From Isurus oxyrinchus (lineage: Eukaryota): a DNA stretch of 64,000 bases. The stretch covers positions 6,014,001 through 6,078,000 of the forward strand of contig JANJGN010000026.1 of assembly GCA_026770705.1 (NCBI GenBank), read 5' to 3'. Below are positions 16,725 through 52,960 of this stretch, piece after piece (the stretch's first letter is position 1; every line of letters begins with the position of its first letter). Under the pieces are notes generated by a model, which made no database searches, was not told where the DNA came from, and saw only the letters and a program-made list of their open reading frames with translations. A program made the translations under genes and the position numbers.

Positions 16725-17626
16725 TTATAATTTAAAAATCTTAACCATTAGACTCAATGGGTATTTTGCTGCAATCTTTAACTCTTCTCTGAATTTACTT
16801 TGGGTCCCTGCATAAATAAACGGGTTGGTGCAGGAAGTCAATAACTGAAGCCTGAATCCACTTTCGTCGAGAATAAAATTTGATTCCTTGAAGTTTGACC
16901 CTGAGAAGTAACTAACACTCGCGATTCACACATAGAGGAACGTTATAAGAACTAAGGCATATAAGAAACTGCCTGAGATGGCAAAGAGTAAAACCGTGGA
17001 CATCCTCCGCTTCTCCATCTCTGGGTCACTCTGATTCTACCCATCGCTCTGGGCCCGAAATCTCCTGCGGACTCTACTGGCCGCGAAAATGTGTCTGACT
17101 GTCAGAGCATTCAGCAACAAGATCAGAATGAATGGGAGACAAGGAGCTATAATGTGCTGAATCCAGTCAAATGCAGCGCATGCAGCTGACGTATAAAATA
17201 TTAATTTTATGTTGCAGAACCAGGGTATTTTGTTAACTGTATTCAAAGTATCATATATAAAATGTAAGTAGGTATTTTTGACAAAGCTCAGTAAACAAAC
17301 TATCACGACAACCCGGTCCGCCGTCTTCACAGTGCAATGTTTTACTTTCAGCCTCTGGCAATAAATGGCCACAAATCTATCAAAGGTGAAAGCGACCATG
17401 AAACAAACTGAACAGTCCATGATTACATAATTTAGGGGAGACCTGAAACTGCACACCGGTGTGATGCTCAGGAAGCTAACAGGGAAATAAATCCCAGCAA
17501 TCCGGTTTAATACCATGGAGGTAACCGTGACAAGGAAATCCATCACCATGGACACCAGGTAGTAAATGATACATCAGGATAGGCCACATCTTCCGTGAGA
17601 CAGGATCACAGCCACTGACCAGTTAG
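16725..17626 (-). pseudogene. GPR139-like orphan GPCR pseudogene (exon 2)
   Basis: Acceptor TTACAG|CTAAC is identical to that of the intact gene. Translation ANWSVAVILSHGRCGLS*CIIYYLV...FTFDRFVAI...DPEMEKRR...CTNPFIYAGTQSKFREEL. In-frame stops at 17574-76, 17037-39 and 16926-28. Exon 1 not found. Confidence 0.92.
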
Positions 17627-18237
17627 CTGTAACAGAGAGACAGGAAGAGAAAATGGGAGAGGGAAAGAGGGTGAATGCGTGTAAGAGGGCTAGAAAAGGA
17701 ATGGTACTGATCTGCGCCGCAGGAAATTTGTCTATTTTTCAGGTTTTTATTAACCTTACACCTTTGGCATGCGATGCCTAGCATATTGCCTAAGCTACGG
17801 GCACTTGTTTCTGTGTTTGTAGTAACCATCCACATTATAAATAATAAGTATCAATCACTTCGGGCTGTGTAATATTACAATGAAACATAAAGAGACCAGA
17901 AAAACAACAAAAACCCAATGATACGAACACGGAATATACAATAGAAGCGAAAAATAACATTTTAACACAATATGGGAGATATTGAAGAGATATTAATGAT
18001 ACAACAACCGATGACAACAGTGGAACCTTACACGACAATAGCAAAATTATTTGAATATGGAACGAATTATATCATTCTGAAGATCTAAAACGCTTTCCCC
18101 AAGTTATTTGCTGTTAAACATTTCACTGCTGGAAAAATTGGCTATCAACTTGGTTGAAAAGATTCCCAAAGGGAGGAAACTAATGGGCAATGAGCTATTT
18201 AGGACTGTGCAGATGATGCTTTGGTGATGACACAGTC

Positions 18238-18310
18238 TTAACTCCTGGGTGTTAACTCCTGGGATGTTAACTCCTGGGGTGTTAACGCCTGGGGTGTTAA
18301 CGCCTGGGTC
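18238..18310 (+). repeat. 15-bp tandem repeat x5 (TTAACTCCTGGGGTG)
   Basis: Direct reading. Confidence 0.9.
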
Positions 18311-20585: not shown

Positions 20586-20666
20586 GGTGACGTGGCCGAG
20601 TGGGTTAAGGTGCTGTTTCAGGCTTTAGTCTCTGTGGTGATGGCAGCTCGACTGCCACCATTGTCA
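20586..20666 (+). pseudogene. Decayed tRNA-Leu gene
   Basis: GGTGACGTGGCCGAGTGGGTTAAGGTGCTG..CAGGCTTTAGTCTCT..CTCGACTGCCACCATTGTCA is collinear with vertebrate tRNA-Leu (GGTAGCGTGGCCGAGCGGTCTAAGGCGCTG...). B-box and stems are broken. Confidence 0.75.
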
Positions 20667-20876: not shown

Positions 20877-20958
20877 TTAGGCATGGTCAAGTGGTGAAGG
20901 TAATGAATTTGAAAGCAGTAATGGTTTTCTCATGCAGGTTCGAATGTTGCATCACCTG
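20877..20958 (+). pseudogene. Decayed tRNA-Ser(TGA) gene
   Basis: CATGGTCAAGTGGTGAAGGTAATGAATTTGAAA...TGCAGGTTCGAATGTTGC matches the tRNA-Ser layout, with a long variable arm. Confidence 0.75.
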
Positions 20959-22105
20959 TTACATCATTCGTGATTTTAACAAACTCTCTGCGGAATTAGA
21001 TGTCGATCAAATGGAATAAAACACATCCAAACCTGCTCCTGTTTCTTATTTCCGCTCGTCTGCGAAAATTCATTCAATTGTTGGGAATGTAAGAAGAGTT
21101 ATCCAAGTTGGTGGCATCGTTGCTTTTAGAGCGTTTCTCTCTACTTCGGCCTCAGTCTGTGTCGGTGTATAAGTCTGTGTCATTTTGGGTCAGTTCCCCA
21201 AGGGATTGAACTCATATTTTCAGCCCAGCTCTTCGTGTCATTGGGTCAGGGAAACTTTGTTAATTTGTGTACACTGTGAGCGGGCACCTCCACCTGTTTC
21301 AATATTGTTTTTGTAACTCAGTTTTCGGAAGAGAATTGGACAATGACGTGAGAGATGAAAACTCAGGGCTATGGAGAAAGAAAAAGATATTGAGTAGAAC
21401 TGGACAGCTTTTTGAGAGAAACTGGCATAGATACGGTGGGGCGAATGGCTTCCTAATGTGCTGTGCTATTTTACCATTCCATTTCTATGTCAATTTCTCT
21501 GCAGCATTCCAGGAAATACCACCCCAATTCTATTTCTGCAAATCAAGACCTTAAGTGCAACATTATTACACAGATTGAATTTCGATAACAATCTCTTTGG
21601 CAATCTTGCCTTTTAAGCTACATAACCTAGCAGCAAAAGTGTTCAAAAAATGTCCACAGAATGAGAAGCAGGAAAAGTTTATGACACACAGAACAATTAA
21701 AGTGATGAAAGTGTTGATTGTCACTCGATAGGCTGATCAGCGTTTCTCACAGTCTGCAGCAACAGTGAATGTGTTTATTTAATCAGATTAACATCATTAT
21801 TCACCGACTCACAGGGTGACTGAGGGCAATATGGGCTCCTTAAAGATAATGAAACCAGTATTAAAATATTACTTTTAAACATTAAACCTTGAAATAAGCC
21901 CTGCAAATAGATTGCAATGTTTGAAAGGAGGTGCAGCTAAGAGGTGGAAGATATGAATGGTGTTATTGAAGATTGAAAGGAATGCATTGCCATCTTTGGG
22001 CTTTTGAAGATCAATAAACTTTGAAATTCAGAACAAGCTGAGGCTTCAGGTGGAAAACAATATTTATCTCCATGCACTTTAGGATGGATTTCGTTTTTCA
22101 TGCAT

Positions 22106-22178
22106 TCCCGGCTTGCTGAGTTGGTCACGCGTGCGACATTTAAAATTATGTCCGTGGATTCGAGCCTTGTGTTCGGCA
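22106..22178 (+). pseudogene. Decayed tRNA-Lys gene
   Basis: 73 nt: TCCCGGCTTGCTGAGTTGGT...GACATTTAA...CGTGGATTCGAGCC..GTTCGGCA, versus GCCCGGCTAGCTCAGTCGGT...CGTGGGTTCGAGCC..GTTGGGCG. Confidence 0.7.
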
Positions 22179-23180: not shown

Positions 23181-23384
23181 GGTTAACTAAACCGGCAATG
23201 TTGTTGGAGAAACTTGTCTGTGGTGCAAGTGACCTGAGGGAAGCAATGGTTAAAGTGATGGTTTTCAGCTAATTGGCAGCCGCCATTTTTGGCATGCTTG
23301 TTGGTCTAATGTATAGGATTTAGCGCTGTCAATGCTAAGGCCTGAATTCGATTAACAGCCTTCTTCCACTGTGTAAATTGTCAC

Positions 23385-23625
23385 AATTAAAAAGAAATCC
23401 TTAGCGAATGAAGCCAGGTCTGGCAGCGTCTGTGGAGTGAGAAACAGCGTTAATTTTCCAGCTGGATGATCTTTCATCAGAGCTGGAAAAGTCAGAGATG
23501 TAACAGGTGGAAAACAAGCCCAGAGGCGGAGAGAGGGAAGTGAAAGGACAAAAGTGAAGGACTGTGATGGGTTACAAGGCATGAGAAAGAAACGGACTAA
23601 AGGGATGATTGTGCAAAATGTGCGT
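23385..23625 (-). mobile_element. Non-autonomous Penelope-like terminal fragment
   Basis: Minus strand CTGATGA-AAGATCATCCAGCT-GGAAAATT-AAC...CCACAGACGCTGCCAGACCTG; inverted relative to 22720-22995. Confidence 0.7.
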
Positions 23626-23947
23626 GGGAATGTTGTAGATTTTTCTTCCTGCTGTTCAAACTGGGACAAATATCACTCCTTGTCAACCAATCACAATTGC
23701 TCTTTGAAGTAGTACGCTGGGCCGAATGGCCGATTTCTGTGTTGTAACTTTCTATAATTGTTTCATTTCCACCCTCACTGCTACTGCCTTCACTGTCATT
23801 CTATCACCAAACAACCAGGTCCAGCAAAATCCACCTTCTTCCCTTCTGCTCAGCTCCTTTGACGTCATGGGACTGAATAAATTCAGCGAGAAGTTCTTTT
23901 TGTCATTTAGCATGAGTTTCGGAATCAGATCTGCGAGATATTTGTGT

Positions 23948-24118
23948 CGGTGAAAACAGTAAAACCTCCCCCACTACCGCTAGATTTTGCCTTGAAACAT
24001 CATCGCTATAGTCAGTGCTATACCGCCCATCACAGCCCTTCACGCAATCCGTATCTTCACCTCGGCATTTGTCCTGGACCTGTTCGAACTGTGACATTTC
24101 CAGCTCTCAGGCGAAACG
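23948..24118 (-). ncRNA. Possible highly decayed U1 snRNA pseudogene
   Basis: Minus strand GCAAAATCTAGCGGTAGTGGGGGA versus U1 GCATAATTTGTGGTAGTGGGGGA. Weaker collinear matches (TTCGCCTGAGAG, GCCGAGG, ATTGC) over ~170 nt. Confidence 0.3.
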
Positions 24119-26129
24119 TCAAATCTCACTGCTCCGATTCTGGTTGAACTGATATGACTTTTCTGTTTTTAATCAGGAAATAATCCACGCTCCAGGTGCT
24201 GAGAATCCAAATTCAAAACAGAGGATTTTGTCCGCAGTCTCTCCGAATCATTTCCAGTGCTTTTGCTGCCTAGCGTGTCAGATGGAACACAAGATTTGTG
24301 CTCGATGAGATTTATGTGCCAGATGTACTCCAGTACCTAAGACGCACCCCATGGCTTGTGCCAACTGTCCAAGATTTGTTATATATCTGCTCGGTGAAGT
24401 CTCTACCTTGCGTGAGTTTAATAGGTCAAAGTAGAGGGAACTTTGCTCTTTATCTAACCCGTGATCTACAAACCGGGAAATTGTTTAACGGGGTAGGTAA
24501 AAGAAGTGTCCTTCCTCTATATACAGTCCTGCATCGTCCTGCGATGAAGCATTTCCATTGTTAATTTGAATCACCTGTTCTGTAACTGCGAGGGGCCAGA
24601 GAACGAGTGAAATCACCGAGGTTCTCCAAGCTGCATGTTACGATAAAAAGGCTAAGTTAAACTTTTTTATGCTGATGGCCTCGGGTTTAAACACATCCAT
24701 GACAGGACTGGAGAAAAATGCCTGTCTGGGAAATGGAGAGAAACTGCATTCGGGAAAGTGGAGCGATGTCGATGGGACTCGGAGAAAGGGATTAAGCAAA
24801 GTCATAGTTTGCCAATTTTCATTTATTAACAATTTCACAGAACATCTTACAGGATAAGCCTATTTTAAAGATAACAGAAATGAATATAATGATTGAGCCT
24901 CACATTGGGAACAGAACACCTGTGCTCTAACCAACCAACGATATGAAATACTGTAACAGACCCCAGAAAGAGGGAACAACGCTCAACCTAAAGGAAAGGG
25001 AACGATAATAAATAAAGAATGAGAACATTTACTTATTTACAAATGGAAATCTAACTGAAAGGAAATTATTGGATACAATTACATTAAAGCCAGAAATTAT
25101 CTCATGCATTTCAAATAGGGAAAATTAAATGTCCCCGTGATTGTCTCAGTTACAAATTCGGAATAATAAACTGAAGGCATTCCGTTGTTAGAGCCACCAA
25201 GAGGACATATTTTAAACTCGGAACACGGACATCTTCATAGACAGCTGAGGAAAATGACTGCTTCCGAATTTCAGCCAATCACTTGACCTGTAAAAGAGTG
25301 AGAAAATAGTGAAGCACAGGTCACTAATCAGGAACATTCACGTTAGAGGTTTTCATCACTGAAACATTTAAAAATGTTTTAAATCGCTTCTATCAGATTG
25401 ATGTGTGAGTGGATTGAATCTTCTCACCTTTAGCAAAGTGACGGCAGCGCTTTAGGCCGCGCTCAAGACGAACAGGACAATGATTGTGGAAGCGTTGTCC
25501 AGATGTTGCCCTTATCGTCCTCACAGTCGTCAATCCAGATGCGGTCTGTGCAATATACAGGGTTATAACCGAGGAAATATATACAATATGTTCTATACAT
25601 ATATACATGACATGAAGACAATGTATTTACATTGTCTTTTTCTCTTCATTAAACTATTCGTTTATTCAGTAATTTAAGTGAAAATAAATAACATTTGCTA
25701 AGTTCGTGACGCTCACCAAACTATCTTTGTCACTAACTCCACAGTTGTTCTTCATTTACATTCTTCATGCTGCCCGTGTTTGAATATGTAGCCATTTTAA
25801 TCCAACTTCGGGATATTGTCAATCAATTTCGCAAAATTGGCGAATATGATAATGGATTTCGAGCGAGATTCACTGGCCAGTGAAGATTGTTTTAACTTAT
25901 TTGGAAATTGTGAATGTTATCGTCTAAGAGCTCTAATGTAAGTTCTCATCTTGTTTGTTGATTTGTGATGGAAATGTGTGGAACATCAATAACTTAAAAA
26001 CATTTCTAAATAAAACATTACTTCAGTGTGTTTGTTGGGTCTGTTTGCTTTAGGAACAATTATTGGAGGATATGTTCGTTGAAAACAGTACTTTGAATCG
26101 TACCTTTATCTTAAGCCTGCGTTTGAGTT

Positions 26130-26970
26130 TATGCTTTAGGGCTTTCCTCTGTGTGTATGAATATCTAGTGTTTTGCATTACTGTGAGAATGCCTGTCGGT
26201 GTCTGTTTATAAGTGTCAATCTATGTGTGCATGTGCCAATGAGTGCTGATATGTGCATTCATATCTCCACATCTGCGTTTGAACGTTTTGTTTATCTGTA
26301 AATGTGTATGCATGAATCTGTCAATCTGCCTGTTTTATGTTGTAACGTCTATGCCTCTGAATCAATGTCTGTGTCAATATGTCCAGTTCTGTTAACATAT
26401 ATATTTACGCGTCCTTTTGTGCTCCATGTATGTTAATGTTTGTGTTTCAATGAGTGTGTTTGATTGTGCTAATGAATGCATGTGTGCGATAATAGATGTT
26501 GGCATCCATGTGTTGATCTATGTGTGTGTCCAAATTGCATTGCGGTGTTTATGTCTGTGTTTGTGTTCTTGTGTGTGCGAGCGTGTTGACGATTGTGTCT
26601 CCGCGTGTGTCTGTGAATGTGTTAACATCTGTAAAGAAAAAAACAAAGTGCTGGAGGGACATAGATGTTGAGTATTTCCAACATTTACTTCTTGTCATTT
26701 CAGATTTCCATCATCCGCAACATTTTGTTTTTGTGTCGTTGTGGGTCTGTTAATGTGCGTGTATGTGTGCCATTTATGTTCGTTAATGTATACGATAGTG
26801 TATGTGATAATGTCCGTATTCCTCTGATCGTCAAAGTGTGCTGTTGAGTCTGTTAATGTTCACGTTTATGTTTGCGCTTACTTGTATGAGCCCGCTAATG
26901 GGTAATATATGTCTGTGCTTGTTTCTATGTATATATGAGTATGTGGGTGCGTTCATATGTACGTCTGTGT
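26130..26970 (+). repeat. Degenerate (TG)n low-complexity tract containing a small PLE-end remnant (~26660-26730)
   Basis: TG/GT-rich text throughout. Confidence 0.8.
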
Positions 26971-27242
26971 CAGTTTCTGAGCATTTTAATTTTTATTCCA
27001 TATTTCACCGAATACGAATAACCAGATCTGGCCCTTCTGATACGAATTATGGAGGCGATTTTTCGTCTTTCGGCAAGTAAACGTGCTTTCTCGAAGATGC
27101 AAAATGACATCAAGCAACAAATCTGCTGCTGTGCCTCGGAATCATGGGGGACACAACTCTGATAAAACCAGAGGAAATGAGGCACTCGTTGAAATTTGGA
27201 CTTTTGGTATTCAACATCTGGGTGGAAACCTTGCTGCTGACA

Positions 27243-27333
27243 GTTGTTAGCCAATCAAATTCTGGCAGCTCTTGCTGTCAGCCAATCAGAGGCTGGCAGT
27301 TTTTACTGTCAGCCAATCAAAGGCTGGCAGCTC
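27243..27333 (+). promoter_or_regulatory. 3 x 31-bp tandem repeat, each with AGCCAATCA (CCAAT/NF-Y consensus)
   Basis: CCAAT at 27251, 27282 and 27313. The repeat is certain; regulatory function is only inferred. Confidence 0.55.
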
Positions 27334-27789
27334 TCCATTACTGGAAACGCCACCAGGTACATATGGATACGGTTAAACGAATTAGGAATGTCAAAATGAA
27401 ATTTTGAAATATCATGTCGCTTAAATACATGCTTTGCAAGAGGATAATCATGAGGGAAGTTTAAAATCTTCGGACAAGAAGCTAGTATTGTTGGCAGCTG
27501 CGTCCTATAACGGAGAAATTTCCCCTTCTAAACTTTCTGCTCAAATTTTGGGATTTCATGTTTGCCCTTTCCCCTCTCTCTGGTCGGCGAATAGGAGGTG
27601 CACTGGTTAACACGTTGCCTTTTGGCCCACGCTTCTCTTCTGAATGGGTGTGATGCTGCAACTTAAAATCGACCTTAATTTTGAAGGGAAGACAACACGA
27701 CAGGCGGAGCTATCGGGATGTAACTGTGCTAACTTTGTTGGAAATACAACATTGTCGGAATCACAAAACATTGTGATGCCGGTACAGCA

Positions 27790-28285
27790 AGTGAATAGGT
27801 AGGCAACTGGATTGTCGGCCATTACTGCAAGGGGAATGGAATATAAAAGTAGGGAAAGCTCACTTCAGCTGTATCCACTGGAGTTTAGAAATGAGAAGTG
27901 ATCTTATTGAAACAAAAGATCCTGAGAGAAGTTGATGGGTTGGAGACTGGAAGGAGTCTCTCCTTGTGTTGAAAGACGAGAGGACGTTGCTTCAAATGAA
28001 ATATCTCCCTCTTAAGACGGTGATGAGGAGATTTTATTCTTTTCCCAGAGGGGCGTTATTCTGTGGAACCACTTTCCCCAGGAAGCTGAGTCATTGAATT
28101 TGTTCAAGGCAGCGTGAGACAACTTTTTGTTACAAAGGAATTAATGGTTCATTGTGGCAGACAGAAAAGGGCAGTTTAGATCACAATCACATTAATCATG
28201 ATCATATCAAATGGTGGAGTAGGCTTGAGAGGCCGAATGGCCTACTCCTGCTCCTGAATCCTATGTACCTCTGTTCCTATGATCT
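27790..28285 (+). mobile_element. CR1 LINE 3' fragment
   Basis: GGAATGGAATATAAAAGTAGGGAA... and terminal GGCCGAATGGCCTACTCCTGCTCCT. Confidence 0.8.
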
Positions 28286-28490
28286 TGGGTTTCGCCAAAG
28301 CAGAAGGAGAGTTTCTGAAGTAACTGTGGGGAATTTTGAGATTAAAGAACTTTAGTCCGTCTCTAACTTCTGCTCAGCTGCGGGCACTACTTGTACAACA
28401 CTGTGTCCGACATCTGTAATGATCTGAAACAACAATTGATTAAGCAGTTGTGTATTTAAATCATGAATGGAGGAAAAGGCCTGCATTACA

Positions 28491-28496
28491 TTTATT
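28491..28496 (-). terminator. Secretory-form poly(A) signal AATAAA
   Basis: AATAAA on the minus strand ~30 nt after the relic tailpiece stop. Confidence 0.7.
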
Positions 28497-28523
28497 GAAG
28501 TTCGAAACATACGCGATAGATTC

Positions 28524-28871
28524 TCATTGAAATGAATTAACTGCTGGATCTATCAACTGTTCTGTTGATGATCTTCAAGGGAATCGCTTGATGTCCCACC
28601 ACACACGAGTAAGAAGCGCCGCTGGCCCACTCCTCCGTTGCAATGGATAACAGGCTGTACATGAAGAAGGAGTTATTGCAGTTCTCTGCCATCACCTCGC
28701 TGTTCTTGTAGTTCCCCGGATTGACCGGCTTGTCATTAACGGTCCACTTGAAGAATATCTCTCCGGGTGAGAAACCTCTCACTTAGCAGCTGAGGGAGAT
28801 GAATCTCTGAGCGGAGATTACTTCAGCTGGGGGCAGGAGGACAGCGGCAGACGGTTTCCATGGATATTTAA
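28524..28871 (-). pseudogene. IGHM: Ig mu heavy chain CH4 + secretory exon, pseudogene
   Basis: Acceptor ATGCAG| at 28872. Translation [46 protein letters not shown]...[31 protein letters not shown] matches shark IgM CH4. Premature TAA at 28783-85. Tailpiece reduced to out-of-frame VNSFQ*. Confidence 0.93.
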
Positions 28872-29357
28872 CTGCATAAAATTTTACAAAACTGTTTAAG
28901 AAACTGGACAATTCCAGGGACAATGCAACCGGTGGTAAGATGTGAGTGAAACGTGATTTGCCATGAATTTTAAAGGTTTCCCTCCCAGGCTCCGTTTGAT
29001 TTTCTAACCAGGAGCAAATGTATACGCTAACCTTCTCTATGAGAACTTAAACTGCTGAACTGTAAAGTTAGAGTTCTGAGCACAGTTAAAGTCCATTCGG
29101 CCCAACTTGTTTGTGCTGGTGTTTCAGCTTTACTCATCTACACCTCATGCCATATCTTTCAATTCCTCTTTCATTGATCCATTTATCCATCTTCGCCTTA
29201 GCCGAATGATCTATGGCTCCAGGGAGTTTATCTGCGGAATGACCAGTTGAGTAATCCGAGTAGTCGATTAATGGATGGTACAGTTCAAAAGTAACCCATA
29301 CACTTCCACAGGAAATAGACACAATGGTTCTCTCATTGCTTCAATCTGAGCAATCAC

Positions 29358-29666
29358 CTGGTTCCTTGTGGGCGGAATGTCTTAAAGAGGTTGGCAGAAC
29401 CTGCTGGCTCAGCACGCAGTAGAACTGAGCCCCACTCAGCCAGGCTTGTGTTGAAATGTTCACGTTGCTCACCACGCTGTTAGGGCTGTCACCCGTTTGG
29501 ACAGAAACCTCTGATTTCAAAGGCTCCTGTTCCTCGTTCCAGGAAACGTCGTCTCCATAAGGGGCATTAGTTACGATTAAGATTAAGGTCGCTGTCGCCT
29601 CCAGTAAGATCAGCTCTCTTCGTGGTTGTAGTAGTGTAATTTCTGGATTGTGGAATGAGGGGGGAA
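29358..29666 (-). pseudogene. IGHM: Ig mu heavy chain CH3 exon, pseudogene
   Basis: 309-nt exon, TTTCACAG| ... CCAG|GTGATT. Open frame [42 protein letters not shown]...[27 protein letters not shown] matches shark IgM CH3. B-strand Cys lost (TLTCVV to TLILIV). Missing from the ORF track in this frame. Confidence 0.92.
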
Positions 29667-29729
29667 CTGTGAAACAGACGTGAGAGTCAAGCAGAACTTC
29701 ACCTTCGGAACGAGAACGCCAGTAGCCAA

Positions 29730-36487: not shown

Positions 36488-36518
36488 TGCCCCTCTGGCG
36501 GTGGGCATAGGATATAAA
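36488..36518 (+). promoter_or_regulatory. GPCR core promoter: CTCF-like site plus TATA box
   Basis: TGCCCCTCTGGCGG (36488-36501; reverse CCGCCAGAGGGGCA) and TATAAA (36513-36518), 62 nt before the ATG. Confidence 0.55.
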
Positions 36519-36579
36519 TGAGTGTGCCATGCAGCTTAAATCAGAGGGGCGAGGACACAAGCATATTAACCTATAAAAA

Positions 36580-36649
36580 ATGCATGCTCCAGGAAATGTA
36601 CCAGCATTTGCCATTTATTATTCTGTACTTGCAGCTTTCGGTGTTCCAG
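36580..36649 (+). CDS. Orphan GPR139-like GPCR, coding exon 1
   Basis: AAAATGCAT... encodes MHAPGNVPAFAIYYSVLAAFGVP + G|GTAAAC. Phase-1 donor joins exon 2 to complete TM1 GVPAN. Confidence 0.88.
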
Positions 36650-39279: not shown

Positions 39280-40479
39280 ATATAGCTGTATGAATTATTA
39301 CAATAATTCTGCTGCTGTTTCTAATTACAATAAAGAAGAACATAAAGTTTAGTCAGCATTCGGCCGATGTGTACACTGCTTGTTCAATTCTATTTTCCCT
39401 CTTTACGTTCATGAATTTAATTGTGCCTGACCAGCGTGTATTGTGATCTTTTGGTATGATACTGGGATCACTACAAAGATTTCCGATGCCACAGTAGGGA
39501 GTTGTGAATTTGAATGTAATTAAATTCTGCTTATTTTTGAGTGCCAGCCAGCACATCCCTGAAGACTCACCGCGGTTCTGCATGAACCCGCCTAATTTCT
39601 TCCTGTCATTCAGGTAATTGAATTTTCCAACTGTCCCTAGCCCAGTCTACTTATAAATCCAATCCCACACCTTCGTATTGATTCTGAATTCCCTCAGGAA
39701 AACTGGGTGGGACCAATGGGCACATTTACTTTTTCATCCCGGAAATTTTGGCCTTGCTGATTGGCAGGCCGGTCCAGGAAGAGTCTGAAGTTAATTTTTA
39801 TAGGTTTTCTTTGAGTGCACAGTTGATATCTTCTATAAAGATTAAACACTGCGTTCGTTCATTTTTGACCTAATGGTGATAAACTGCCTAGAGTAGTGCT
39901 TCCCATAGTTACATTTTTTTTTATTTGATGCGTTCACTTTGGGATTGCAAGACTGAAATGGATGACTTTTTATAACTAACTGCCGGCCAAGTTATATAAT
40001 CCAATTTGCTCATAGTATTGATGGTCATATCTAGTTTTGACAAATCTTTCAGGACTCCAGGAGCATTAATGCAACTAATGTTTCGTCGTAGTCTTTTTTT
40101 CCGCAACCAATATTCTTTCTAGCTAGCCGCACCTGACTTTTTGTGTTTAGGAATTCCACTCTTTTACGCCAGTGACATACGGGCTAAATTGCTGGCCAAT
40201 AAAATTCTCAAACGTTGTTCAGTTCCTTTAACCATTTCCTTTATATTTCTCCTTCAAAGTGTTTCTCTCTCCATTTGAAGCTCTCTCTCTCTCTCTCTCT
40301 CCCTCTCACTTTCTCCATTGCCCCTTTTTTTCTTCTTCAATTCTGCAACTTCCAACTTTCTGTTCATTTCAAGTTGACAGAAACTTTATTCGCAGCTTCA
40401 TTATTTATAAGCATCAACTTTTTCCAAATTGCTACAAATTGATTATATTTATAGGCCATGACTTAGTTGCAGGTGAAGC

Positions 40480-43360
40480 AGTTCAGAGTATGGGCTGTAA
40501 TGTAATAAGTCATTACACAGGAGAAAAAGAACATACTCATGGATGCTCTAAATTTGGGAAGGGCAGGTTAAACGTATTAAAGAGGTCGGACATGCAGATA
40601 AAAATGGGTGAGGCACTATATTAGTGACTGAGGATCTTAGGTCAGATGAACAAGATGTCGTATCCGTCTGGGTCGCGATAATAGACAGCAAGGACCGAAA
40701 CTTGAAGTATGCGTTGTTTATAGGTAAGCAAATGGTTTTAGGACGCTGTGAAAATCAAAAAAGAAGAGGGAGATTTAAATCAATTTATCGACTGGGTTAT
40801 CCCAATGAACACTATTGCTTTGGAAGATTCACTGTAGCGAGTACGAGAGCAGGGTGTTGAGGAAGCAATCAATGAACAGGTAAATTTAGGTGCAGCTTTG
40901 TCCAATGAGAGAGGGATAATTAATAACTTTGTTGTAAAAGAGCCCTAAGGAAAGAGTGACTATTGTATGAAGATTGTTCATTACGTTTGACAACAACCAT
41001 GTTTAATCTAAAACAAGAATATTATTCTAATCAAAGGAAACAATCATGGTATTGGGGACACCTTTCCTGTGATGGATGAGGACAACACATTAGAAGGTAA
41101 ATGACAGTAGGCAAGCAATGTCTATTATTTAAATGCCTAACACATACTTTACAAAGCAAAACAATCCCCAAAGGCGCAAAAAACCTAAAACAAAATGTGA
41201 ATCATCTATGACTAACAGTGGAAGTTATGAAAGTATGAGATGAAAGAAGGACTTATATATCTGCCAAAAAAAAGCAGCAAGGCACTGAGTTTGGAGCATT
41301 TTAGAATTCACCAAAAGAGGACCAATAAACTGGTCAAGGATGGGAGAATAGAATATGAATACTAACCAAAGAGAAAAATAAGAATGGACTAACAGTTTCT
41401 ATAGGTCTGATAAGATTTAATGTTTCACAAGGACTAATGCGGTTGCATTACAGGCAGTCAGGAAAATGTATCATGCAGCACATGGAAATGGTAGAGGAGA
41501 TAAATAATTACATTATCAATGTCGTCACAGCTGAAGTCACAAGAAATCCCTCAGGAGTAATAGGGAACCAAATGGCCTGTCAGAATCAGGAACTGAAGGA
41601 AGTAACTATTTGTGAAAGAATATTATTTGATGATCTAGTGGGATAGAATGTCTACAAATCCCCGGGACCTAACGATCTACATCCCAGGGTGTTAAAAGAA
41701 GCAGCTGTAGAGATAGTGGATGCATTGGTACTGACACTTTCACTTCTATACATTCTCGAACTGTATTTGCAGATAAGATGTTTCCTTGTGTAACCCCAGT
41801 ATTGAAGAAAGGAAGGAGAGAGAAAGTTTGGGAGTTCAGACCTGGAATCTAGTAAAAAGGGATGCGATATTCAAAGACACTGCCTCGACCCCTGTTCAGG
41901 GAAGTCAGTTCCAAAGGCTTCTGACTCTCTGAGGGAAAACTCTCCTCATCTCCCTCTTAAAATAGAGACCCATTAAATGTAATCGGTGTTCCCTATCCCT
42001 ATGTTGTAAAACGGAGGGTGGGGAGTTAGCTGGGAGAGGGGGACATCCTTCCAGCATTCAGCCTGTGAAGTCAAATCAGCATCATATGTGTTTCAATAAG
42101 AACTCCTCTAATTAGTTTCTCCGGTGGATACATTCCCAAACTATCCAAACTTTCCTCATAAATTTACAATTCCCCACCCCCACATACACACACACACCCC
42201 AAACCGCCCTCAGAAAAGGTGTCAATAACTTTAAAACACACCCCTAATAGAGGGGGTCACATCCTGGCGTGGATTGAGGATTGGTTCATGGAATGAAAAC
42301 AATAGGAATATATGTGTCATTCTCAGACTGGCAGGTTGTGAAATGTGTTTGAATGCAGGGGTCAGTACTTGGTCCCATCTGTTCACAATATATACCAATG
42401 ATTTGCATGTGAGGACTAAATGCATAATTTCAATGTCTGCAGATGGATCAAAATTAGGTAGGATTCCGAGTTGTGAGAAGGTTGCAAAGAAGCTTGAAGC
42501 GTGTTTCAACAGCCACAAGTGACTTGGGCAAACACCAAGAATATTGAATATAATACCCATACATGTTGGATTAACCAATTTGGTTGGAGAAACAGATGTA
42601 CAGGGTACTTCATAAATGGTGAGAGATTTGGAAGTGGTGATGTCCATAGGGCCCTCTGTGTCCTTGTCCATAAGCCACTGAAAGCTAACGTGCAGCAATC
42701 AATTAGGGAAAAAAAGGATATGTTGGCCTTCATCGCAAAAGGGCTTGCACATGCAAAAGTAAAAAAGTTTTGCTTCCATTTTGCATAACTTTGTTTAGCC
42801 AAAGCTGGAGTATTGTGTACAGCTTTCGTATCCTTACCTATGGAAGAATACGCTTGCCATAGAGAGAGAAGAGCGGAGGTTTACCAGGTTCATTTGTGGG
42901 ATGGCGGGACTGGTCTCTGAAAAGATATCCAGGAGACTGGTTCTCTCTTCTCATAAGATTAGAAGAAAGAGAATTGATGTCATTGAAACCAACAGAATTC
43001 TCAAGGCGCTAAAAAATATTTGGATGTGGAAAGGAAGATACCCATAGTGGTGGGATCAAGAACCAGTGAACATGGTCTCAGAACAAGGGGCGAATCATTT
43101 AGGACTCAGATAAAGAGGATCTTCTTCATTCAGAGGGTTTGGAATCTTTAGAATTCGCTGTCCAAGACGGCCATGGAAGCTCAGTCACTGCAATGTTCAA
43201 AACAGGTATCGATAGATTTCTGGACATTGATTACACCATGGGTTTAAGGGAATAGAGAGCGAAAATGGTTTTGAGGCAGATGTTCAGCCATGACCTAGGT
43301 TTATAGCAGAGCAGGCTCGCGGGGGTTGCATGGCCTATACTTGATCCCATGTACCTATGT
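40480..43360 (+). mobile_element. Decayed CR1 LINE with internal inverted fragment (~41860-42160)
   Basis: KSPGP..LHPRVLKE-like segment (~41655), LFTIYTNDL..ADGSKLG (42274-42522), 3' end GCATGGCCTATACTTGATCC. Confidence 0.8.
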
Positions 43361-44989
43361 CCCTCTGCTAGATCTGAAATGCAATATACTCTGTATATGT
43401 GTGGCCTCCTATATGTACTGTGATTCTTTAATACCTGTTCAGGGGTTATGTAGGAGCCTATTAGGGACAGTTTAGAATTCAAGTGAAATTCGAAAACCCT
43501 TCGTACTTTAAAGAACTATTCCACTAAAATCCACGTTCATAAACATGAAAACACACTTTGTTCAATATGAAACTTAACAAATTAAGTCCCACTAACTCAA
43601 TACTCTAATTTATAAAGAATTTCGCTGAAACACAGGTTTACTTGTTACTTCCCAAGAAGAGTTTTATTTTTAACTGACGAAATCTTCAAGGCCATTCATT
43701 TATGAGAGTGGTTACTCACGGTAAGCCACAGCCATCCGGAATTCACTTTCGTTATCCTCAGTTTTCCTGAAATTCTCTGAGGTATGAAAATTCTTCTGGA
43801 ATCCTCCATGAAATTTTGCCCAGGCGATTTTCCAATTTTATTTAAATACTTCATGATTGTGGTCTCGGCAGTTTTAACTTCTTTTTAACTGCCTTCTTGC
43901 TTCGGGGTTTAAACTTCAGGTACACCTCCCCGCCCGAATAACTTCCATTCTCCCGAAGCTTCTGTGCAGCTGCTCATTTCACAGCTGATTTACTGCTCAT
44001 GGAACATGCTTTCTATATGCCTGTTGGAAGCTGTCTGATTGCTCCATGGATCTTTCTATGAACAAACGCACACACACGGATAAATTAAGCACAGGAATCA
44101 CACACACATCACTGTGCTAATGTGGCACACTGCTGGATCTCTCCAACATAAGCGTTCACTAATAATTTTACCTTCAACACAACTCGTTGGTTATGAAACG
44201 CAGATGAATAGGTTTTGTCTTCAAATGATATAACTTCCCTCTCTCCAGATGTGCTGGTTCCAATTCCAGGGATGGGTCACACTTCTAATAAGTAAAACCA
44301 TCTCTGACCGTGTATGTGTAAGATAAACATATGTTAAATTTCCCTCTAATCATACATTGAACAAATTAATTCCTGAGACTAAAAGTTATATTCTAAAACA
44401 TTGGAATTGTGAAATATACATTTGCAACTGGAATAGGGCCAATAATCTGTTGTAGGCAACTATGGGTGGGAAGTAACTTTGGTTTTATGATCTATATATG
44501 GGCTTTATGCATATGGGCATCGGGTCAGCATGTTTGGAATCACACCAGTATATTTTGGGTATAATGTCAGTACATGTATTATAATCGGTATTTTGAGAAG
44601 AAGCACAGGGTGTTCATTATAGGGCAAACATATAGCGGATCCCAGATCAGCCGGACCATAAGCCTGGTGAATAGAGCGTTCAGCCTGTTGTGTCATAGCT
44701 TCAGTATTACGAATAAATGGTCATGTGTGCACCATCGATTCAGTAATGCGGCTGTAAAATCAACAAATCTCTTATAGGGCAATAGAGGGGGTGGAAGGTC
44801 CGTACATGTATTGAAGAGACAGTTGTGAGGATCTGTGGATTGAAGGGAAAAGAAAGAGGGAAGCCAGTTTGCTAAAAGTGGTTTCGGAAGAAAATGAAAA
44901 ACGAATCTTCCATTCAGCTCATCGACGCTGTCATGCTATTCATCGTGATCATGATCGACCTGTATCCTCATTCCATCTTTCACTGTTGT

Positions 44990-47100
44990 CCCTGCACTGT
45001 CGCTGATGTAAACTTCTGGAACTCCCCCTCCATCAGCACTCTGGGTGCACCTCCACTACAGGGATTGCAACTGTTCGGGAAGTAGCTAACCGTCACCTCC
45101 AAAGGGCAATTAGGGATGGGCAATCAATGCTGGCCCACTTGCCTCAACTAGATATATTTCTCCCCCTCCCCCTCTCTCCAAAGCTCTGTCCATCTCATGT
45201 TAAAAAAAGAGATAAATCGTTTTTTTTTTGCATTGTTGATCCGTTTACACTCTTGCCACTCTGCATGAATAATTATTTCCCTCATTCTGTTATCAATCTC
45301 TGGCTGAAACATTAAGTATATGTTGCTGCATGTCTAAGGATCTCTCATCAAAGGAACACGGTTCCTCTAAACTTCATTTCCTTTAAAATTCCTGACAGTC
45401 ACAATCAATTTCCGCTTAAAACCTTCATGTTCAATCGTTAGGGAGTCTGTTGTGTGTTCTCGTTTCTCATATTTTCACATTTGGAATACTGTTAACATCC
45501 TTGGAATTCACCCACGGCCTATATATTATTTCTTAACATGCAGTGCTGAGAAATGCACCCAATAATCTGAAGTTGTATCTCCAGAGTTTTTTTTCTTTTT
45601 TTATTAAATAAATGTAGCAAACGTCATCCCATCCTTCCCTGTTTATTTAATCTTTCTGGTTATAAGTAATAAACCTTGTTGTGCGTGTTTATATCAGACT
45701 TTTTATTGTGTTGTCAAAAATATTAATGCTGATAATGAATTGGTGAAGCTTCAGCAATGAGCCCTCTGGCCATCAATCTTCTCTCCGTTTGTGTTCCATG
45801 CCCGTTACCCCAACACTCTACCTTCTATCCGCTGCCATTTTTTGCTGTTTTGGTCTGCATTGATTCCCTGAGCTTTAATTATAGCTATTAGCCACATATG
45901 AAAAACATTATTGAGTATCCCCGGAGGTCATTTAAACAATTTCCATTCTCACGCTACAGCCCACAAACATAGCTTTTTCCTTATAAATTTCAAAGATGTT
46001 CGGTAGACATGATATTCAAATTTAAAATCCTCTTGAGGAATCCCTAAGCGCATACCAACTTCTTCTTAATTATAATTCCAATGAGTCCTGAACGACAGAT
46101 GTCATACTAACAAAATAGTATTACTGCACTATATGTGATATCAGCAACCAATGAATTGCAGAGATGCAACAAATCTGAGAAATATTAAGCAGAGGTGCAA
46201 AAGCTAGATTTCTAATTGTAATTTTTCCCTAGCTGCAGTGTCTAGAATGAGGGGCACAGTGTCAGAATAAGGGACGGGCCATTTAGGACTCAGATGAAGA
46301 AGAATATATTCACTCAGTTGGGGATGAATCTTTGGAACTCTCTACCCCAGAGGGATGTGGAGGCTCAGTCCTCGTGTATGTTCAAACCTGATATTGATAA
46401 ATGTCTACATTTTACAAACATCGAAGGATACGGGGATAGTGCAAGGAAATAGTGCTGAGGTAGAAGATAAGCCATGATCTCATTGATTGATGGAGTGGAG
46501 ACTGAAGGCTTGATGGTCCACTCTAGTTTCTACTCATTACGTTCTTATGCTGTTATGGTGACAATTGGGGAATTTTATTGTTGTAATTTCTATCACATTC
46601 AGCAGATCCTACAGCTTTATAACTAAAATGACAAATGACTAACAGGCGGTTAAATTGAAGACAAAGAGGGTGGACTGGACGAAGAATTAAATGTAGCAGA
46701 CTGGGTAGATCAACCTAAAAGTGAAGATGATGGAAGAAGGTAGTTGATTAACTGATAGAGGCAGCGTGGATACAGTGGAATAATTGGAAGATGTAGGGGT
46801 GGACATGTTGAGTAAATAGAAGAAGAGGGGATCCATAATGATTAAATAGAGGATGCCGACGGGATTTAATTCGATAAAATGAAATGGCAGAGGTGTGGCA
46901 AGATGAATAATGGAAGAGGCAGAGTGGAGCAAAGAGCGGAAATGAAAGCGTCCGAGTGGAGATAGCAGGCTAAACAGAATATACAGAACTCAAACAGTGG
47001 ACTAAATAGCAGAATTTCAGATTGTTGCGTATTGGCTTGTGCTATCCCCATGATATGAAGTGGGCCAGAAATAATTTCCCCAATGTAATGATAAAGGTGT
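44990..47100. mobile_element. Patchwork of old LINE fragments (second-family 3' end, CR1 both strands, probable L2 remnant ~46660-47100)
   Basis: AAGGGCAATTAGGGATGGGCAATCAATGCTGG at ~45102; CR1 3' end at 46230-46550; DPLFF-like RT remnant on the minus strand. Confidence 0.55.
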
Positions 47101-48159: not shown

Positions 48160-48413
48160 ATGGTCTAAATGTGAAAATGAAAGACATTGAACATTCCAAC
48201 ACATGCCTTAGTTCCTTTCGGAACTTCCTCTGTGTTAATCCAGAATTAGACATGTTGTTGCAGTGGCTCAGGAGAAGCAACATGCCCCTGCTTCCTTTAG
48301 CATTAAACTTGGTGTCATTTAATTATAACGTGTGAGATATGAACCACGGCAGTTATTTCATCTACAACGCTTACAATCATACTGCTCACAGCAGGATGGG
48401 GCTGTCTGAAGGT
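48160..48413 (-). pseudogene. Third GPR139-like GPCR pseudogene, 3' part (TM6-helix 8)
   Basis: SDSPILL* (cf. SGSFLLLW), then NDTKFNAKGSRGMLLLLSHCNNMSNSGLTQRKFRKELRHVL (cf. NDPKFILQESGYMLQLLSSCTNPCIYAGTQSKFRGELKDTV). Confidence 0.8.
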
Positions 48414-51400
48414 TAAAAACAAAAAACTATGGATGCTGGAAATCCAAAACAAAAACAGAATCACCTGGAAAAACTCAGCAGGTCTGGCATCATCGGCGAA
48501 GAAGAAAAGACTTGATGTTTCGAGTCCTCATGACCCTTCAACAGAACTGAGTGAATCTTAGGAAAGGGCTGAAATATAAGCTGGTTTAAGGTAGGGGGGG
48601 TGGGGCGGGTGGAGAGAAGTGGAGGGGGGTGGTGTGGTTGCAGGGACAAGCAAGCAATGATAGGAGCCGATAATCAAAAGATGTCACAGACAAAAGAACA
48701 AAAGAACACAGAGGTGTTAAAGTTGGTGATATTATCTAAATGAATGTGCTAATTAAGAATGGATGGTAGGGCACTCAAGGTACAGCTCTAGTGGGGATGG
48801 GGGCGGCGTAAAAGATTTAAAAATAATGGAAATAGGTGGGAAAAGAAAAATCTATATAAATTATTGGAAAAAAAACAAAAGGAAGGGGGATGGAACAGAA
48901 ACGGGGTGGGGATGGAGGAGGGAGCTCAAGACCTAAAGTTGTTGAATTCAATATTCATTCCAGAAGGCTGTAAAGTGCCTAGTCGGAAGATGAGGTGCTG
49001 TTCCTCCAGTTTGTGTTGGGCTTCACTGGAACAATGCAGCAAGCCAAGGACAGACATGTGGGCAAGAGAGCTGGGTTGAGTGTTAACATGGCAGGCGACA
49101 GGGAGGTTTGGGTCATTCTTTCAGACAGACCGCAGGTATTCTGCAAAGCGGTCACCCAGTTTACGTTTGGTCTCTCCAATGTAGAGGAGACCGCATTGGG
49201 AGCAATGAATGCAGTGGACTAAATTGTGGGAAATGCAAGTGAAATGCTGCTTCACTTGAAAGGAGTGTTTGGGCCCTTGGACGGTGAGGAGAGAGGAAGT
49301 GAAGGGGCAGCTGTTACATCTTTTGTGTAGGCATGGGGAGGTGCCATATGTGGGGGTTGAGGAGTAGGGGATGATGGATGAGTGGACCAGGGAGTCCCGG
49401 AGGGAATGATCCCTACGGAATGCCGCTGGAGGTGGGGGGGGGGAGGTGAAGGGAAGATGTGTTTGGTGGTGGCATCATGCTGGAGTTGGCGGAAATGGTG
49501 GAGGATGATCTTTTGAATGCAGAGGCTGGTGGGGTGACAAGTGAGGACAAGGGGGACCCTATCATGTGCCTGGGAGGGAGGAGAAGGCATGAGGGTGGAT
49601 GCACGGGAGATGGGCTGGACACGGTTGAGGGCCCTGTCAAAGACCATGGGTGGAAAACCTAGGTTAAGGAAGAAGGAGGACTTGTCAGAGGAACTGTTTT
49701 TGAAGGTAGCATCATCGGAACAGATGCGACGGAGGCGAAGGAACTGAGAGAATGGAATGGGGTCCTTACAGGAAGTAGGGTGTGAGGAGCTGGAGTCGAG
49801 GTAGCTTTGGGATTCGGTAGGCTTGTAATGGATATTGGTGGACAGTTTATCACCAGAGATTGAGACAGAGAGGTCAAGGAAGGGAAGGGAAGTGTCAGAG
49901 ATGGACCATGTGAAAATGATGGAGGGGTGGAGATTGGAAACAGAATTAATAAAATTTTTCTAAGTCCCGACGAGAGCATGAAGCAGCACTGAAGTAAACA
50001 GAGATGTACCGGAGAAAAAGTTGGGGAAGAGGGCCGGAGTAGGACTGGAACAAGGAATGTTCCACATACCCCATAAAGAGACAGGCATAGCTGGTGCCCA
50101 TGCTGGTACCCAAAGCCACACCTTTTATTTGGAAGAAGTGAGAGGAGTTGAAGGAGAAATTGTTAAGTGTGAGAACAGGTTCAGCCAGATGAAGGAGAGT
50201 AGCGGTGGATGGGGATTGTTTGGGCCTCTGTTCGAGGAAGAAGCTAAGGGCCTTCAGACTATCCTGGTGGGGGATGGAGGTGTAGAGGGATTGGACGTCC
50301 ATGGTGAAGAAGAAGCAATTGGGACCAGGGAACTGGAAATTCTTGATGTGACATAAGATGTCAGAGGAATCACGGATGTAGGTGGAAAGGGAATGGACAA
50401 GGGGAGAGAGAAGGGAGTCAAGATAATGAGAAATGAGTTCTGTGGGGCAGGAGCAAGCTGACATGATCGGTCTACCAGGACAGTTCTGTTTGTGGATTTT
50501 GGGCAGTAGGTAGAAGTCCGAGGTTGGGCAACTATCAGGTTCGAAGCTGTGGGAGGAAGATCTCCAGAGGAGCTGAGGTCAGTGACAATCCTGGAAACAA
50601 TGGCTTGATGTTCAATGGTGGGGTCATGGTCCAGGGAGAGGTAGGAGGAAGTGTCTGCAAGTTGACACTCAGCCTCCACGAGGTAGAGGTCAGTGCGCCA
50701 GACAACAACAGCACCACCCTTGTCAGCAGGTTTGATGACAATGTCAGGGTTGGACCTGAGAGAACAGAGTGCAGTAAGTTCAGAGAGAGACAGATTAGAA
50801 TGGGTGAGAGGAGCAGAGAAATTGAGACGACTAATGTCGCGCCGACAGTTCCTAATGAAAAGGTCAAGAGAAGGTAAGACTCCAGAGGGAGGGGTCCAGG
50901 TGGAGGGAGAATATTGGAGGTGGGTAAAAGGATCCGTTAAACGGGGCGAGGAGTCCAGCCCAAAAAAGTGAGCATGGAGACGAAGTCGGCAGAAGAAGAG
51001 TTCAGCATCGTGCCGAGCCCTAAATTCATTGAGATGAGGGTGTAAGGGTATGAAATTAAGTGCTTTGCTGAGCACTGAACGTTCATCATCGGAGATGGGA
51101 AGGTCAGGGGCTATATGAATACACGCCCAGGGCTGGGATTGGAAGATGGGGTGGGGACGGAGGGACAGGCAAGGGTGGAGAGTCCTGGATGGGTGTTGGT
51201 GTCGATGTGTTGTTGGAGCTTGTGTTCCTTAGCACTTGAGAGAAAGAGAAAAAGTTTCTTGTTGAGGTGTCAGATGAGAAAACTCCAGCATGATGCCCAC
51301 CAAACACATCTTCTCTTCACCGACACTGGCGGCATTCCGTAGGGATCGTTCCCTCCGGGACACCCTGGTCCACTCATCCATCACCCCCTACTCCTCAACC

Positions 51401-52316
51401 CTCACCTATGGCACCTCCCCATGCCCACGCAAAAGATGCAACACCTGCCCCTTCACTTCCTCTCTCCTCACCGTCCAAGGGCCCCAACCATCCTTTCAAG
51501 TGAAGCAGCATTGCCCCCAACTTAGTCTACTGTATTCGTTGCTCCCAACGCGGTCTCCTCTACATTGGAGAGACCAAACCTAAATTGGGTGACCGCTTTG
51601 CAGAACACCTGAGGTCTCTCTGCTAGAATGACTCAATCTCGCTGTTGCTTGCCATTTTAACACTCCACTCTGCTCTCTTGCCCACATGTCTGTCCTTGGC
51701 TTGCAGCATTGTTCCAGTGAAGCCCAACGCAAACTGGAGGAACAGCACCTCATCTTCCGACTAGGCACTCTACAGCCTTCTGGACTGACTATTGAATTCA
51801 ACAACTTTAGATCTTGAACTCCCTCCTCCATCCCCACCCCCTTTCTCTTTCTTCCCCCTTCCTTTTGTTTTTTCCAATAATTTATATAGATTTTTCTTTT
51901 CCCACCTATTGCCATTATTTTTAAATCTTTTATGCCCTGCTAGCCTTTCCACCCCACCTCAACTAGAGCTGTACCTTGAGTGTCCTACCATCCATTCTCA
52001 ATTATGACATTCGTTTAGATAATATCACCACCTTCAAAGCCTCTGTGTTCTTTTGTCTGTGACATCTTTTGATTATCGGCTCCTATCACTGCTTGCTTGT
52101 CCATAAACCACACCCACCACCCCCCCACCACTTCTCTGCTTCACCCCACACCCCGCCCCCCACCCCTGCGACCTTAAACCAGCTTATATTTCAGCCCTTT
52201 CCTAAGATTCACTCAGTTCTGTTGTAGGGCCATGAGGACTTGAAATGTCAACTCTTTTCATCTCCGCCGATGCTGCCAGACCTGCTGAGTTTTCCGGTTA
52301 TTCTGTTTTTGTTTTG
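48414..52316 (-). mobile_element. Penelope-like retroelement (RT + GIY-YIG), frameshifted, with inverted ~1-kb terminal copy
   Basis: IVIKPADKGGAVVVW, FFTMDVQSLYTSIP, QIKGVALGT, FLRYI RT motifs in different frames (49946-51075). GETKRKLGDRFAE GIY-YIG remnant near 49130-49180. 51281-52316 is an inverted copy of ~48440-49487. Confidence 0.93.
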
Positions 52317-52960
52317 AATTTATCTGGTTCTCTGTCTCTGGCTCCCTTTCGTTCTCCCCATTGCCTTTTTTGCCAGAGAATCCTGCAGGTTTCACTGTCA
52401 GCAAATTGAATGCATGGAACGATTAAATCCTTGAGATAAATAATCCGAGAAATGGAAATAAGTGGCTAAAACATGATTGATCCAGTCGGTTCTTTTTCCT
52501 GCAAATGAAACGTAAAAGTCTAATTCTATTCTTCCAAATGAGGCACTTTGTTGTTGACCTCCAGTATTCCTGTACAATTTATCTCTGATTTTTGTTTTCA
52601 TTTTCTTAATGGACGCAACGAACATATGGGCACTTCTCCGAGAGAAATATCACCACTTCATATTCGAGCAACAAACACAGATGTACTCATCGAAGGTGAA
52701 AGTGATGGATAGCCAGACAGAACAACCCTCTGGATGCATATTGAAAGCCGTGCTGACGTCACTGACTTGCCTGGTGAACGCCAAACTAACCCACAAATAA
52801 ATGTCAGACATTGAATACAAGCAGCAGCGAAAACACCATTCCTTTGTTCATTGCCATGAATGCGCAGTGATGCAACTGGAAAGAATACCGCCCCCTCGAG
52901 AAAGGATCGCAAAGGACAATAATCATCCTTTTTTTGCGGACCAGAAAATAGCAGGATAAC
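52317..52960 (-). pseudogene. Third GPR139-like GPCR pseudogene, 5' part (TM1-ICL3)
   Basis: LLSFAILSRGGGILSSCIT; GCSVWLSITFTFDEYICVCCSNMKW*Y; IELDFYVSFAGKRTDWINHVLATYFHF; GNGENEREPETENQINS. All collinear with the intact receptor, with stops and frameshifts. Confidence 0.85.

Follow-up and report, generated by a model that had tools for sequence, protein, structure and literature searches.

What do the genes for orphan G protein-coupled receptors (GPCRs) do that lie around a dead immunoglobulin M (IgM) constant region in the shark Isurus oxyrinchus? The genes are contained in a 64,000-nucleotide stretch of DNA (hereafter the window; assembly GCA_026770705.1, contig JANJGN010000026.1, here C26:6014001-6078000), and proteins of their family bear the RefSeq label GPR139 ('probable GPR139'). 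In the available text of earlier studies, cartilaginous fishes are described as GPCR-poor (PMC8455134), and their sense of smell is ascribed to V2Rs, a few dozen in number, with a handful of further receptors (PMC10116579, PMC11979771). Analysis of the window and searches of the shark genome, covering 4.98 Gb in 5,558 contigs, revealed a very large receptor family, which is real and apparently undescribed. On sequence evidence we assign a probability of about 0.5 to the reading that this family provides sensory neurons with a repertoire of chemical sensors, with one old branch interleaved and copied with immunoglobulin (Ig) heavy chain (IgH) miniclusters, likely passively.

The intact gene encodes a class A receptor distinct from GPR139

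The window contains one intact two-exon receptor gene, one copy with three stops, and one eroded copy split by a retroelement. The original prediction of three paralogs in both orientations and at three stages of decay (intact, three stops, heavily eroded) was thus recovered with coordinates and stops (Table 1). The intron of the intact gene (36650-38368) is in phase 1 with GT-AG borders, and the encoded protein of 326 amino acids is a class A (rhodopsin-like) GPCR by fold, Pfam, and motifs. Its only Pfam match is 7tm_1 (73.7 bits), its predicted structure is a helical bundle (pLDDT 72), and the class A motifs D2.50, D-R3.50, W6.48, and N-P7.50-x-x-Y are present. Foldseek analysis of the model returned class A matches, with peptide and chemokine receptors closest; all class A scores are alike, and no single ligand class stands out. 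The ESM Atlas offered only a GPR139-type database label and FMRFamide-receptor-like clusters. Among 1,910 database homologs, all 118 named ones within the top 120 are from elasmobranchs.

A motif search of the genome led to three places: C15 holds GPR139, C22 a gene labelled GPR142-like from its similarity, and C46 a divergent member of the family. Comparison with human GPR139 gave 525 bits for the C15 gene vs 28 bits for the window protein, and the latter is 26% identical to the shark GPR139 ortholog in a local alignment; identity to GPR139/GPR142 is 26-30%. In a quick tree of 65 rows, the 63 family rows are split from GPR139/142 with support 100, and the window gene falls into one group with genes from skates and rays, again with support 100. 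Activation of GPR139 by Trp/Phe needs F3x33, H5x43, W6x48, and N7x38, according to the text available (PMC5430874). The window protein has C, D, W, and Y at these positions, keeping one of the four residues, and R6.51 of GPR139 is replaced by Y. The scores, the separate groups, and the pocket residues led us to reject the window gene as a GPR139 ortholog, as the original prediction had held.

Kinship with Trp/Phe receptors (PMC5430874) raises another reading, namely that the family senses amino acids or peptides internally or outside olfaction (in gut, gill, skin, ampullae, gonad, or brain) and extends the role of GPR139/GPR142. The available text on catshark OR and V2R-like genes reports their expression in such organs (PMC11979771). 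Given the single retained GPR139 residue in the window protein, and thousands of copies that would far exceed an internal need, this reading is very unlikely.

A profile search found the nearest outside relatives in salamanders, coelacanth, and teleosts (20 of the 150 matches were named); identity to coelacanth is 34%. In a quick tree with these relatives, built without bootstrap or a true root, the family is joined at support 99 by the proteins from coelacanth, teleosts, and salamanders; the salamander genes fall within the base of the family. Bony-fish orphans related to GPR139/142 (coelacanth, gar, fishes) were named GPR210 by Rinne et al. 2019 (PMC6504862, available text). The shark family is probably the elasmobranch arm of these GPR210 orphans. 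The phase-1 intron occurs at one TM1 (first transmembrane helix) position throughout the family and also in true GPR139. The shared TTACAG/CTAAC junction had been taken as a sign that the two younger copies arose by duplication at the DNA level; that origin stands, and the acceptor is not special to the two copies.

The family is estimated at thousands of loci and shows turnover

The near paralogs of the window protein (the best 130 of 7,638 candidates scored) are all at least 58% identical to it. A C46-type subfamily (the best 132 of 7,960 candidates scored) is at least 86% identical to its query throughout; these copies, at least 132 in number, occupy 30 contigs without Ig matches (C46, C51, C63, C70, C72, C85, C93, C99, C110, and others). 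Judged by that identity, the subfamily is a very recent burst. Further family clusters lie on C2, C7, C19, C21, C23, C29, C31, C32, and C33. Two exact DNA motifs were counted across the genome. Motif 1 gave 905 matches vs 8 for its control; 26 of its first 100 matches are unclustered and probably mostly a repeat. Motif 2 gave 1,058 matches vs 0 for its control. It recovered 18 of the 74 clustered motif 1 matches; among near loci the yield was 7 of 30, and among C46-type loci 11 of 30. The union of motif-bearing loci would be about 1,700. Because motif 2 catches only a fraction of known loci, we estimate the family total at about 2,900-4,400 loci, a count that haplotigs may inflate. Within 464 contiguous kb, 18 receptor loci were found, of which 6 are intact and 12 broken; from this fraction and the estimated total, a rough figure of ~1,000-1,500 intact genes follows, which uncollapsed haplotypes could inflate. 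Identity among the 43 sampled intact genes ranges from 42 to 100% (median 55%), and many receptor lineages are common to sharks and rays.

A lineage-expanded, uncharacterised birth-and-death family had been predicted, and the two motif counts together with the intact share of local loci bear this out: the genome would hold thousands of copies, far beyond a handful, about one third of them intact. Searches of an open-access library found no account of the expansion; closed journals, figures, or supplements could contain one. The available text of PMC8455134, PMC12208981, PMC11979771, PMC10116579, PMC10529500, and 10.1101/2025.06.08.657570 does not describe it. In the text of the last of these, a tandem-gene survey, GPR91 alone is named, and sharks are unmentioned in the available text of PMC12208981. 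A class A family with ~1,000 intact genes contradicts the GPCR-poor view of cartilaginous fishes outright, and the V2R-based view of their smell becomes testable.

A promoter motif suggests chemical sensing

Analysis of family promoters revealed a TAATT(G/A) homeodomain-type site abutting a CCC-x-GG-type O/E (Ebf) site, ~30 nt above the TATA box. Of the 33 genes for which an exon 1 was accepted (near-copies kept), 13 carry a strict regular-expression match no more than 150 nt from that exon, against a background of 0.013 per kb in all fetched DNA. In a leave-one-out analysis with a motif matrix, 13 of 15 distinct sites scored above the 99th percentile of the background, and matrix sites are also present in branches away from Ig loci (C46, C31, C33, and C21 genes). 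In the mouse, enhancers of odorant receptors are marked by Lhx2 and Ebf sites lying side by side, as the available text states (PMC5608512). By this analogy, the homeodomain and O/E-like motif, with its putative factor binding, suggests expression in chemosensory neurons. An additional TGTTTGTT element, presumably forkhead-like, is located at about 36410-36450 of the window and recurs upstream of the homeodomain and O/E motif in many paralog promoters.

The family is under purifying selection at the coding level. A dN/dS check run by site class on the 43 genes gave an omega of 0.37 overall and 0.21 on the inner halves of the transmembrane (TM) helices. Sequence entropy in 28 genes was higher at 32 pocket sites (1.66 bits) than at inner TM sites (0.75 bits; p=2e-7). 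The receptors are constrained as a family and diverse on the outside, with no positive-selection signal at this coarse level.

In the mechanism that we propose, an elasmobranch two-exon class A GPCR family, separate from GPR139, would act as a set of chemical sensors in sensory neurons. Lhx2-like homeodomain factors and O/E (Ebf) factors would act on the promoter motif and switch on single genes in olfactory or other chemosensory cells. Each of the receptors would recognize a ligand, either small and polar or peptide-like, in an outer pocket that is variable and often acidic, and would signal via a G protein at the inner face, which is conserved. Unequal crossing-over and segmental duplication would raise the copy number, in repeat-rich regions that also hold Ig, tRNA, and zinc-finger clusters. 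A more specific proposal, which we hold only tentatively, is a fifth olfactory family of sharks and rays, of class A and labelled 'probable GPR139', whose ~1,000 or more working genes would exceed all four known olfactory families of sharks together, with Lhx2/Ebf-type promoters and an ancient branch among IgH miniclusters.

Several observations weigh against the chemosensory reading. The copy estimates hang on a motif recall of 0.23-0.37 and may include haplotigs. There is no sign of positive selection, because omega at the 32 pocket sites (0.32) falls inside the 0.26-0.48 of 10 random 32-codon sets, and pocket entropy (1.66) is no higher than that at other outward TM sites (1.41, p=0.10). 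The promoter motif was not found near exon 1 in four genes of the C110/C51/C72/C85 clade; its matrix was derived from the same promoters, and paralogs share ancestry. Ebf1 is also a B-cell master factor. In mouse, the tight Lhx2/Ebf composite marks enhancers rather than promoters, according to the available text (PMC5608512). Catshark olfactory neurons are described, in the text available, as microvillous and V2R-dominated (PMC10116579).

The expression data count neither way. No RNA data set was listed as containing receptor exon 2. In three runs guessed to be RNA (X1, X16, and X10), receptor exon 2 had low summed depth (one of its contigs, 246 nt long, shows 6 differences) and the IgM exons were deep; among the contigs of these runs, intron bins were mostly uncovered and no joint of exons 1 and 2 was listed. 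From 7 TRP_2 matches, elimination left one exon as TRPC2-like; it had cover in none of four runs of unstated tissue, which is equally neutral, and OMP was not found in the genome, which is uninformative.

The link to immunoglobulin loci is regional and likely passive

The Ig loci used for comparison came from a CH4 search (132 rows from the best 150 of 459 candidates), of which 131 were used after the second piece of one locus was dropped. Among the 130 nearest paralogs, 123 are on contigs carrying an Ig constant (C) match, and 35 lie within 100 kb of an Ig C exon, vs at most 0.5% expected genome-wide. Within contigs, the picture differs: the median distance to Ig is 223 kb vs 218 kb after shuffling (p=0.56), so that the paralogs are no closer to Ig than chance at this scale. 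Only 2 of the 130 lie within 25 kb of an Ig C exon. The 30 contigs of the C46-type subfamily all lack an Ig match, and receptor matches are absent from the 80 kb around C38:7.96 Mb. A fixed cassette of Ig and GPCR was rejected on the 25-kb count, the shuffling result, and the receptor-free C38 region.

Comparison within C26 revealed a ~21-kb block in which the receptor was copied together with an already dead IgM. The twin block has no match to about 25135-26410 of the window; elsewhere, the two copies differ by 1.3-3.9% substitutions in most non-coding parts, 8.3% downstream, and 4.6-4.9% in the Ig exons. Because the in-frame stop in CH4 is common to both copies, the IgM was dead before the block was duplicated. 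The predicted co-duplication with Ig therefore holds for at least one proven block, whose IgM was dead beforehand; the association with Ig is limited to one branch and to the megabase scale. The Ig link of the nearest-paralog branch is real, regional, and likely passive. In mammals, odorant-receptor clusters flank the T-cell receptor (TCR) and major histocompatibility complex (MHC) loci.

The association with Ig loci is also what favors a leukocyte repertoire, in which cells of the B lineage or other immune cells would express the Ig-region branch, driven by Ebf1 and IgH enhancers, and its receptors would sense microbial or host peptides, like the FPR and MRGPR families. The counts on IgH-bearing contigs (123/130) and within 100 kb (35/130), the Ebf-type site in the receptor promoter, and a fold nearest to peptide and chemokine receptors, though class A matches score alike, are consistent with this role. 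We consider it rather unlikely, since distance to Ig within contigs is random, the 30 C46-type contigs have no Ig match, and the promoter motif also occurs in non-Ig branches. In the available part of the bamboo shark single-cell marker tables (PMC11372145), a GPR139-named row is absent while other GPR names are present; sparsely expressed genes would escape such tables.

Exon 2 of the intact gene differs from its twin (C26:5863665-5864575) by 0.77%, vs 3.9% in the intron, and is thus five times closer; 5 of the 7 changed codons are non-synonymous, and the closeness includes synonymous sites. Gene conversion among paralogs is possible, fitting this closeness as well as selection does. Such conversion would also fit a largely neutral amplification, in which a small functional core has multiplied by hitchhiking in regions prone to duplication, and the intact copies are mostly young, redundant, or made alike through conversion. 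The 12 broken loci out of 18, the copying of whole blocks with dead IgM and satellites included, the C46-type subfamily of at least 132 copies at 86% identity or more, and the lack of excess in pocket omega agree with neutral amplification. It nevertheless seems unlikely: many lineages are common to sharks and rays, and 43 intact genes with a median identity of 55%, an omega of 0.37, and conserved promoters retain what passengers would not. The IgM minicluster territory would hold a duplication engine shared by antibody loci and receptors.

IgM relic, tRNA relics, and decayed receptor copies

The predicted IgM constant-region relic between the receptors was confirmed by Pfam C1-set matches to CH3 and CH4, and the transmembrane exon relic is an addition to the elements first listed. 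V, CH1, and CH2 of IgM had no match anywhere in the window. A functional IgM gene (unbroken V-D-D-J-CH1-4-TM) was excluded, as only CH3, CH4 with a stop, and TM with a frameshift and a stop are left.

Fossil tRNA genes had also been predicted between the receptors. The queries were 10 intact tRNAs taken from the vicinity of other IgM loci in the genome, with shuffled queries as controls; 6 of the 10 align above the controls, at three window places, and the other 4 have no convincing match in the window. These relics are missed by standard tools: ARAGORN found 0 tRNAs in the window, its relaxed mode equalled its shuffles, Rfam gave nothing above cut-off for the relics, and a profile of 22 tRNAs of 4 types had no match in the window. 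Further possible relics seen by eye near 22110 and 23110 were not confirmed.

The 3' part of the IgM relic is colinear with other IgM loci, their tRNA region included. Intact tRNAs lie 3' of 4 of the 6 stop-free IgM C regions examined (8, 8, 2, and 1 tRNAs); for the two regions without tRNAs, only 11 and 17 kb of DNA were covered. No intact tRNA was found in 20 stretches around near-type receptors. Because they stand beside 4/6 IgM C regions and in 0/20 receptor stretches, the tRNA genes are part of the IgM cassette; tRNAs as a piece of the receptor unit were rejected. At C42:3917203-3944185 and C38:7920291-7947285, 8 intact tRNAs each begin ~10 kb 3' of IgM CH4 in identical order (Ser, Glu, Val, Ile, Glu, Asn, Ser, then Ser or Pro), and on C42 C2H2 zinc-finger open reading frames (ORFs) come next after the cluster. 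A weak tRNA-like match is located at 6004-6075 of the window on the minus strand (Rfam 25.5 bits), and an intact tRNA-Tyr at C26:6083436-6083508, 5 kb beyond the window end.

Alignment of pseudogene copy 1 showed exactly three in-frame stops and zero frameshifts, and no exon 1 was found in the 9 kb upstream. Copy 1 and the intact gene were rejected as sister duplicates, because copy 1 is 75% identical to the gene at C26:5740587 (290 kb away) vs 67% to the intact window gene. The retroelement in copy 3, which we take to be Penelope-like, has a reverse-transcriptase domain (RVT_1, E=1.6e-4) below the Pfam cut-off. The window also contains a 62-bp unit repeated 10 times at 33461-34078 (88% match).

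The adjoining 400 kb contains one more IgM CH3/CH4 relic, the third and an older one (C26:5916805-5917898), as well as a weak C1-domain match (C26:5759740-5760003, 26%). Large degenerate tandem arrays, tens of kb long with ~75% self-identity, occupy C26:5614001-5660000 and C26:5773000-5847000; they are located inside a direct duplication of 92-99% identity and may be partly an assembly effect. Elsewhere on the contig, a lone Ig V-set exon (C26:35372666-35373286, Pfam V-set E=8.5e-14) lies between two IgM loci.

Table 1. Receptor, immunoglobulin, and tRNA features located in the window (window positions).
Feature	Position	Strand	Remarks
Intact GPCR, exon 1	36580..36649	+	ATG at 36580; short N-terminus and first half of TM1
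Intact GPCR, exon 2	38369..39279	+	End of TM1 to TM7, helix 8
Promoter motif, TAATTG homeodomain-type site abutting O/E (Ebf)-like site	36483..36519	+	~30 nt above TATA box
GPCR pseudogene copy 1, exon 2 only	16725..17626	-	53% identical to intact gene; 3 in-frame stops
Eroded GPCR copy 3, 5' part of exon 2	about 52315..52960	-	Receptor match about 52920-52315, then the 3.9-kb insertion
Eroded GPCR copy 3, 3' part	48168..48425	-	Beyond the 3.9-kb insertion
Reverse-transcriptase retroelement in copy 3	48440..52321		3.9 kb; ~1-kb inverted ends, 86% alike
Segmental-duplication block (IgM relic and intact GPCR)	23471..45000		Inverted twin C26:5857977-5877911, ~180 kb away
IgM CH4 exon relic	28540..28860	-	Pfam C1-set; 1 in-frame stop
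IgM CH3 exon relic	29344..29661	-	Pfam C1-set
IgM transmembrane exon relic	25427..25546 (approximate ends)	-	Frameshift and stop
Decayed tRNA-Leu-like gene	20587..20666	+	Score 54 vs 41.5-46 shuffled; weakest margin of the three
Decayed tRNA-Ser gene	20878..20959	+	Score 67-73.5 vs 39-51 shuffled
Decayed tRNA, best match tRNA-Glu	23295..23358	+	Score 51-52 vs 36-39 shuffled; Rfam 17 bits, below cut-off

Comparison with known systems

The shark family resembles the vertebrate chemoreceptors (OR, TAAR, V1R/ORA, and V2R) in being a clustered multigene family with many pseudogenes, a short N-terminus, a variable outer half, and homeodomain and O/E-like sites. It differs in being an unrelated lineage with an intron in TM1 and no positive-selection signal, and its olfactory expression and ligands are only proposed. 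With GPR139/GPR142 (PDB 7VUG, 9M42), it shares the class A seven-helix fold, the short N-terminus, the phase-1 TM1 intron, and the database name, whereas these receptors have one copy each vs thousands in the shark family, and the pocket residues differ. The GPR210 sets of bony vertebrates represent a third GPR139/142-related lineage; in the main text of their description few genes are listed and sharks are unmentioned (PMC6504862).

For the genomic setting, the closest comparison is AgRC (Flajnik et al. 2025, PMC12227049), where, in the available text, IgM miniclusters occupy one region with stray V exons between them. We infer that C26 corresponds to the AgRC region. GPCRs and tRNAs are unmentioned in the main text and two supplements of that paper, whereas GPCR arrays, tRNA clusters, and C2H2 zinc-finger ORFs lie between the IgM loci of the present genome. 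What lies between shark IgM miniclusters is thereby revealed: zinc-finger genes, arrays of receptors, and clusters of tRNAs linked to the 3' end of IgM.

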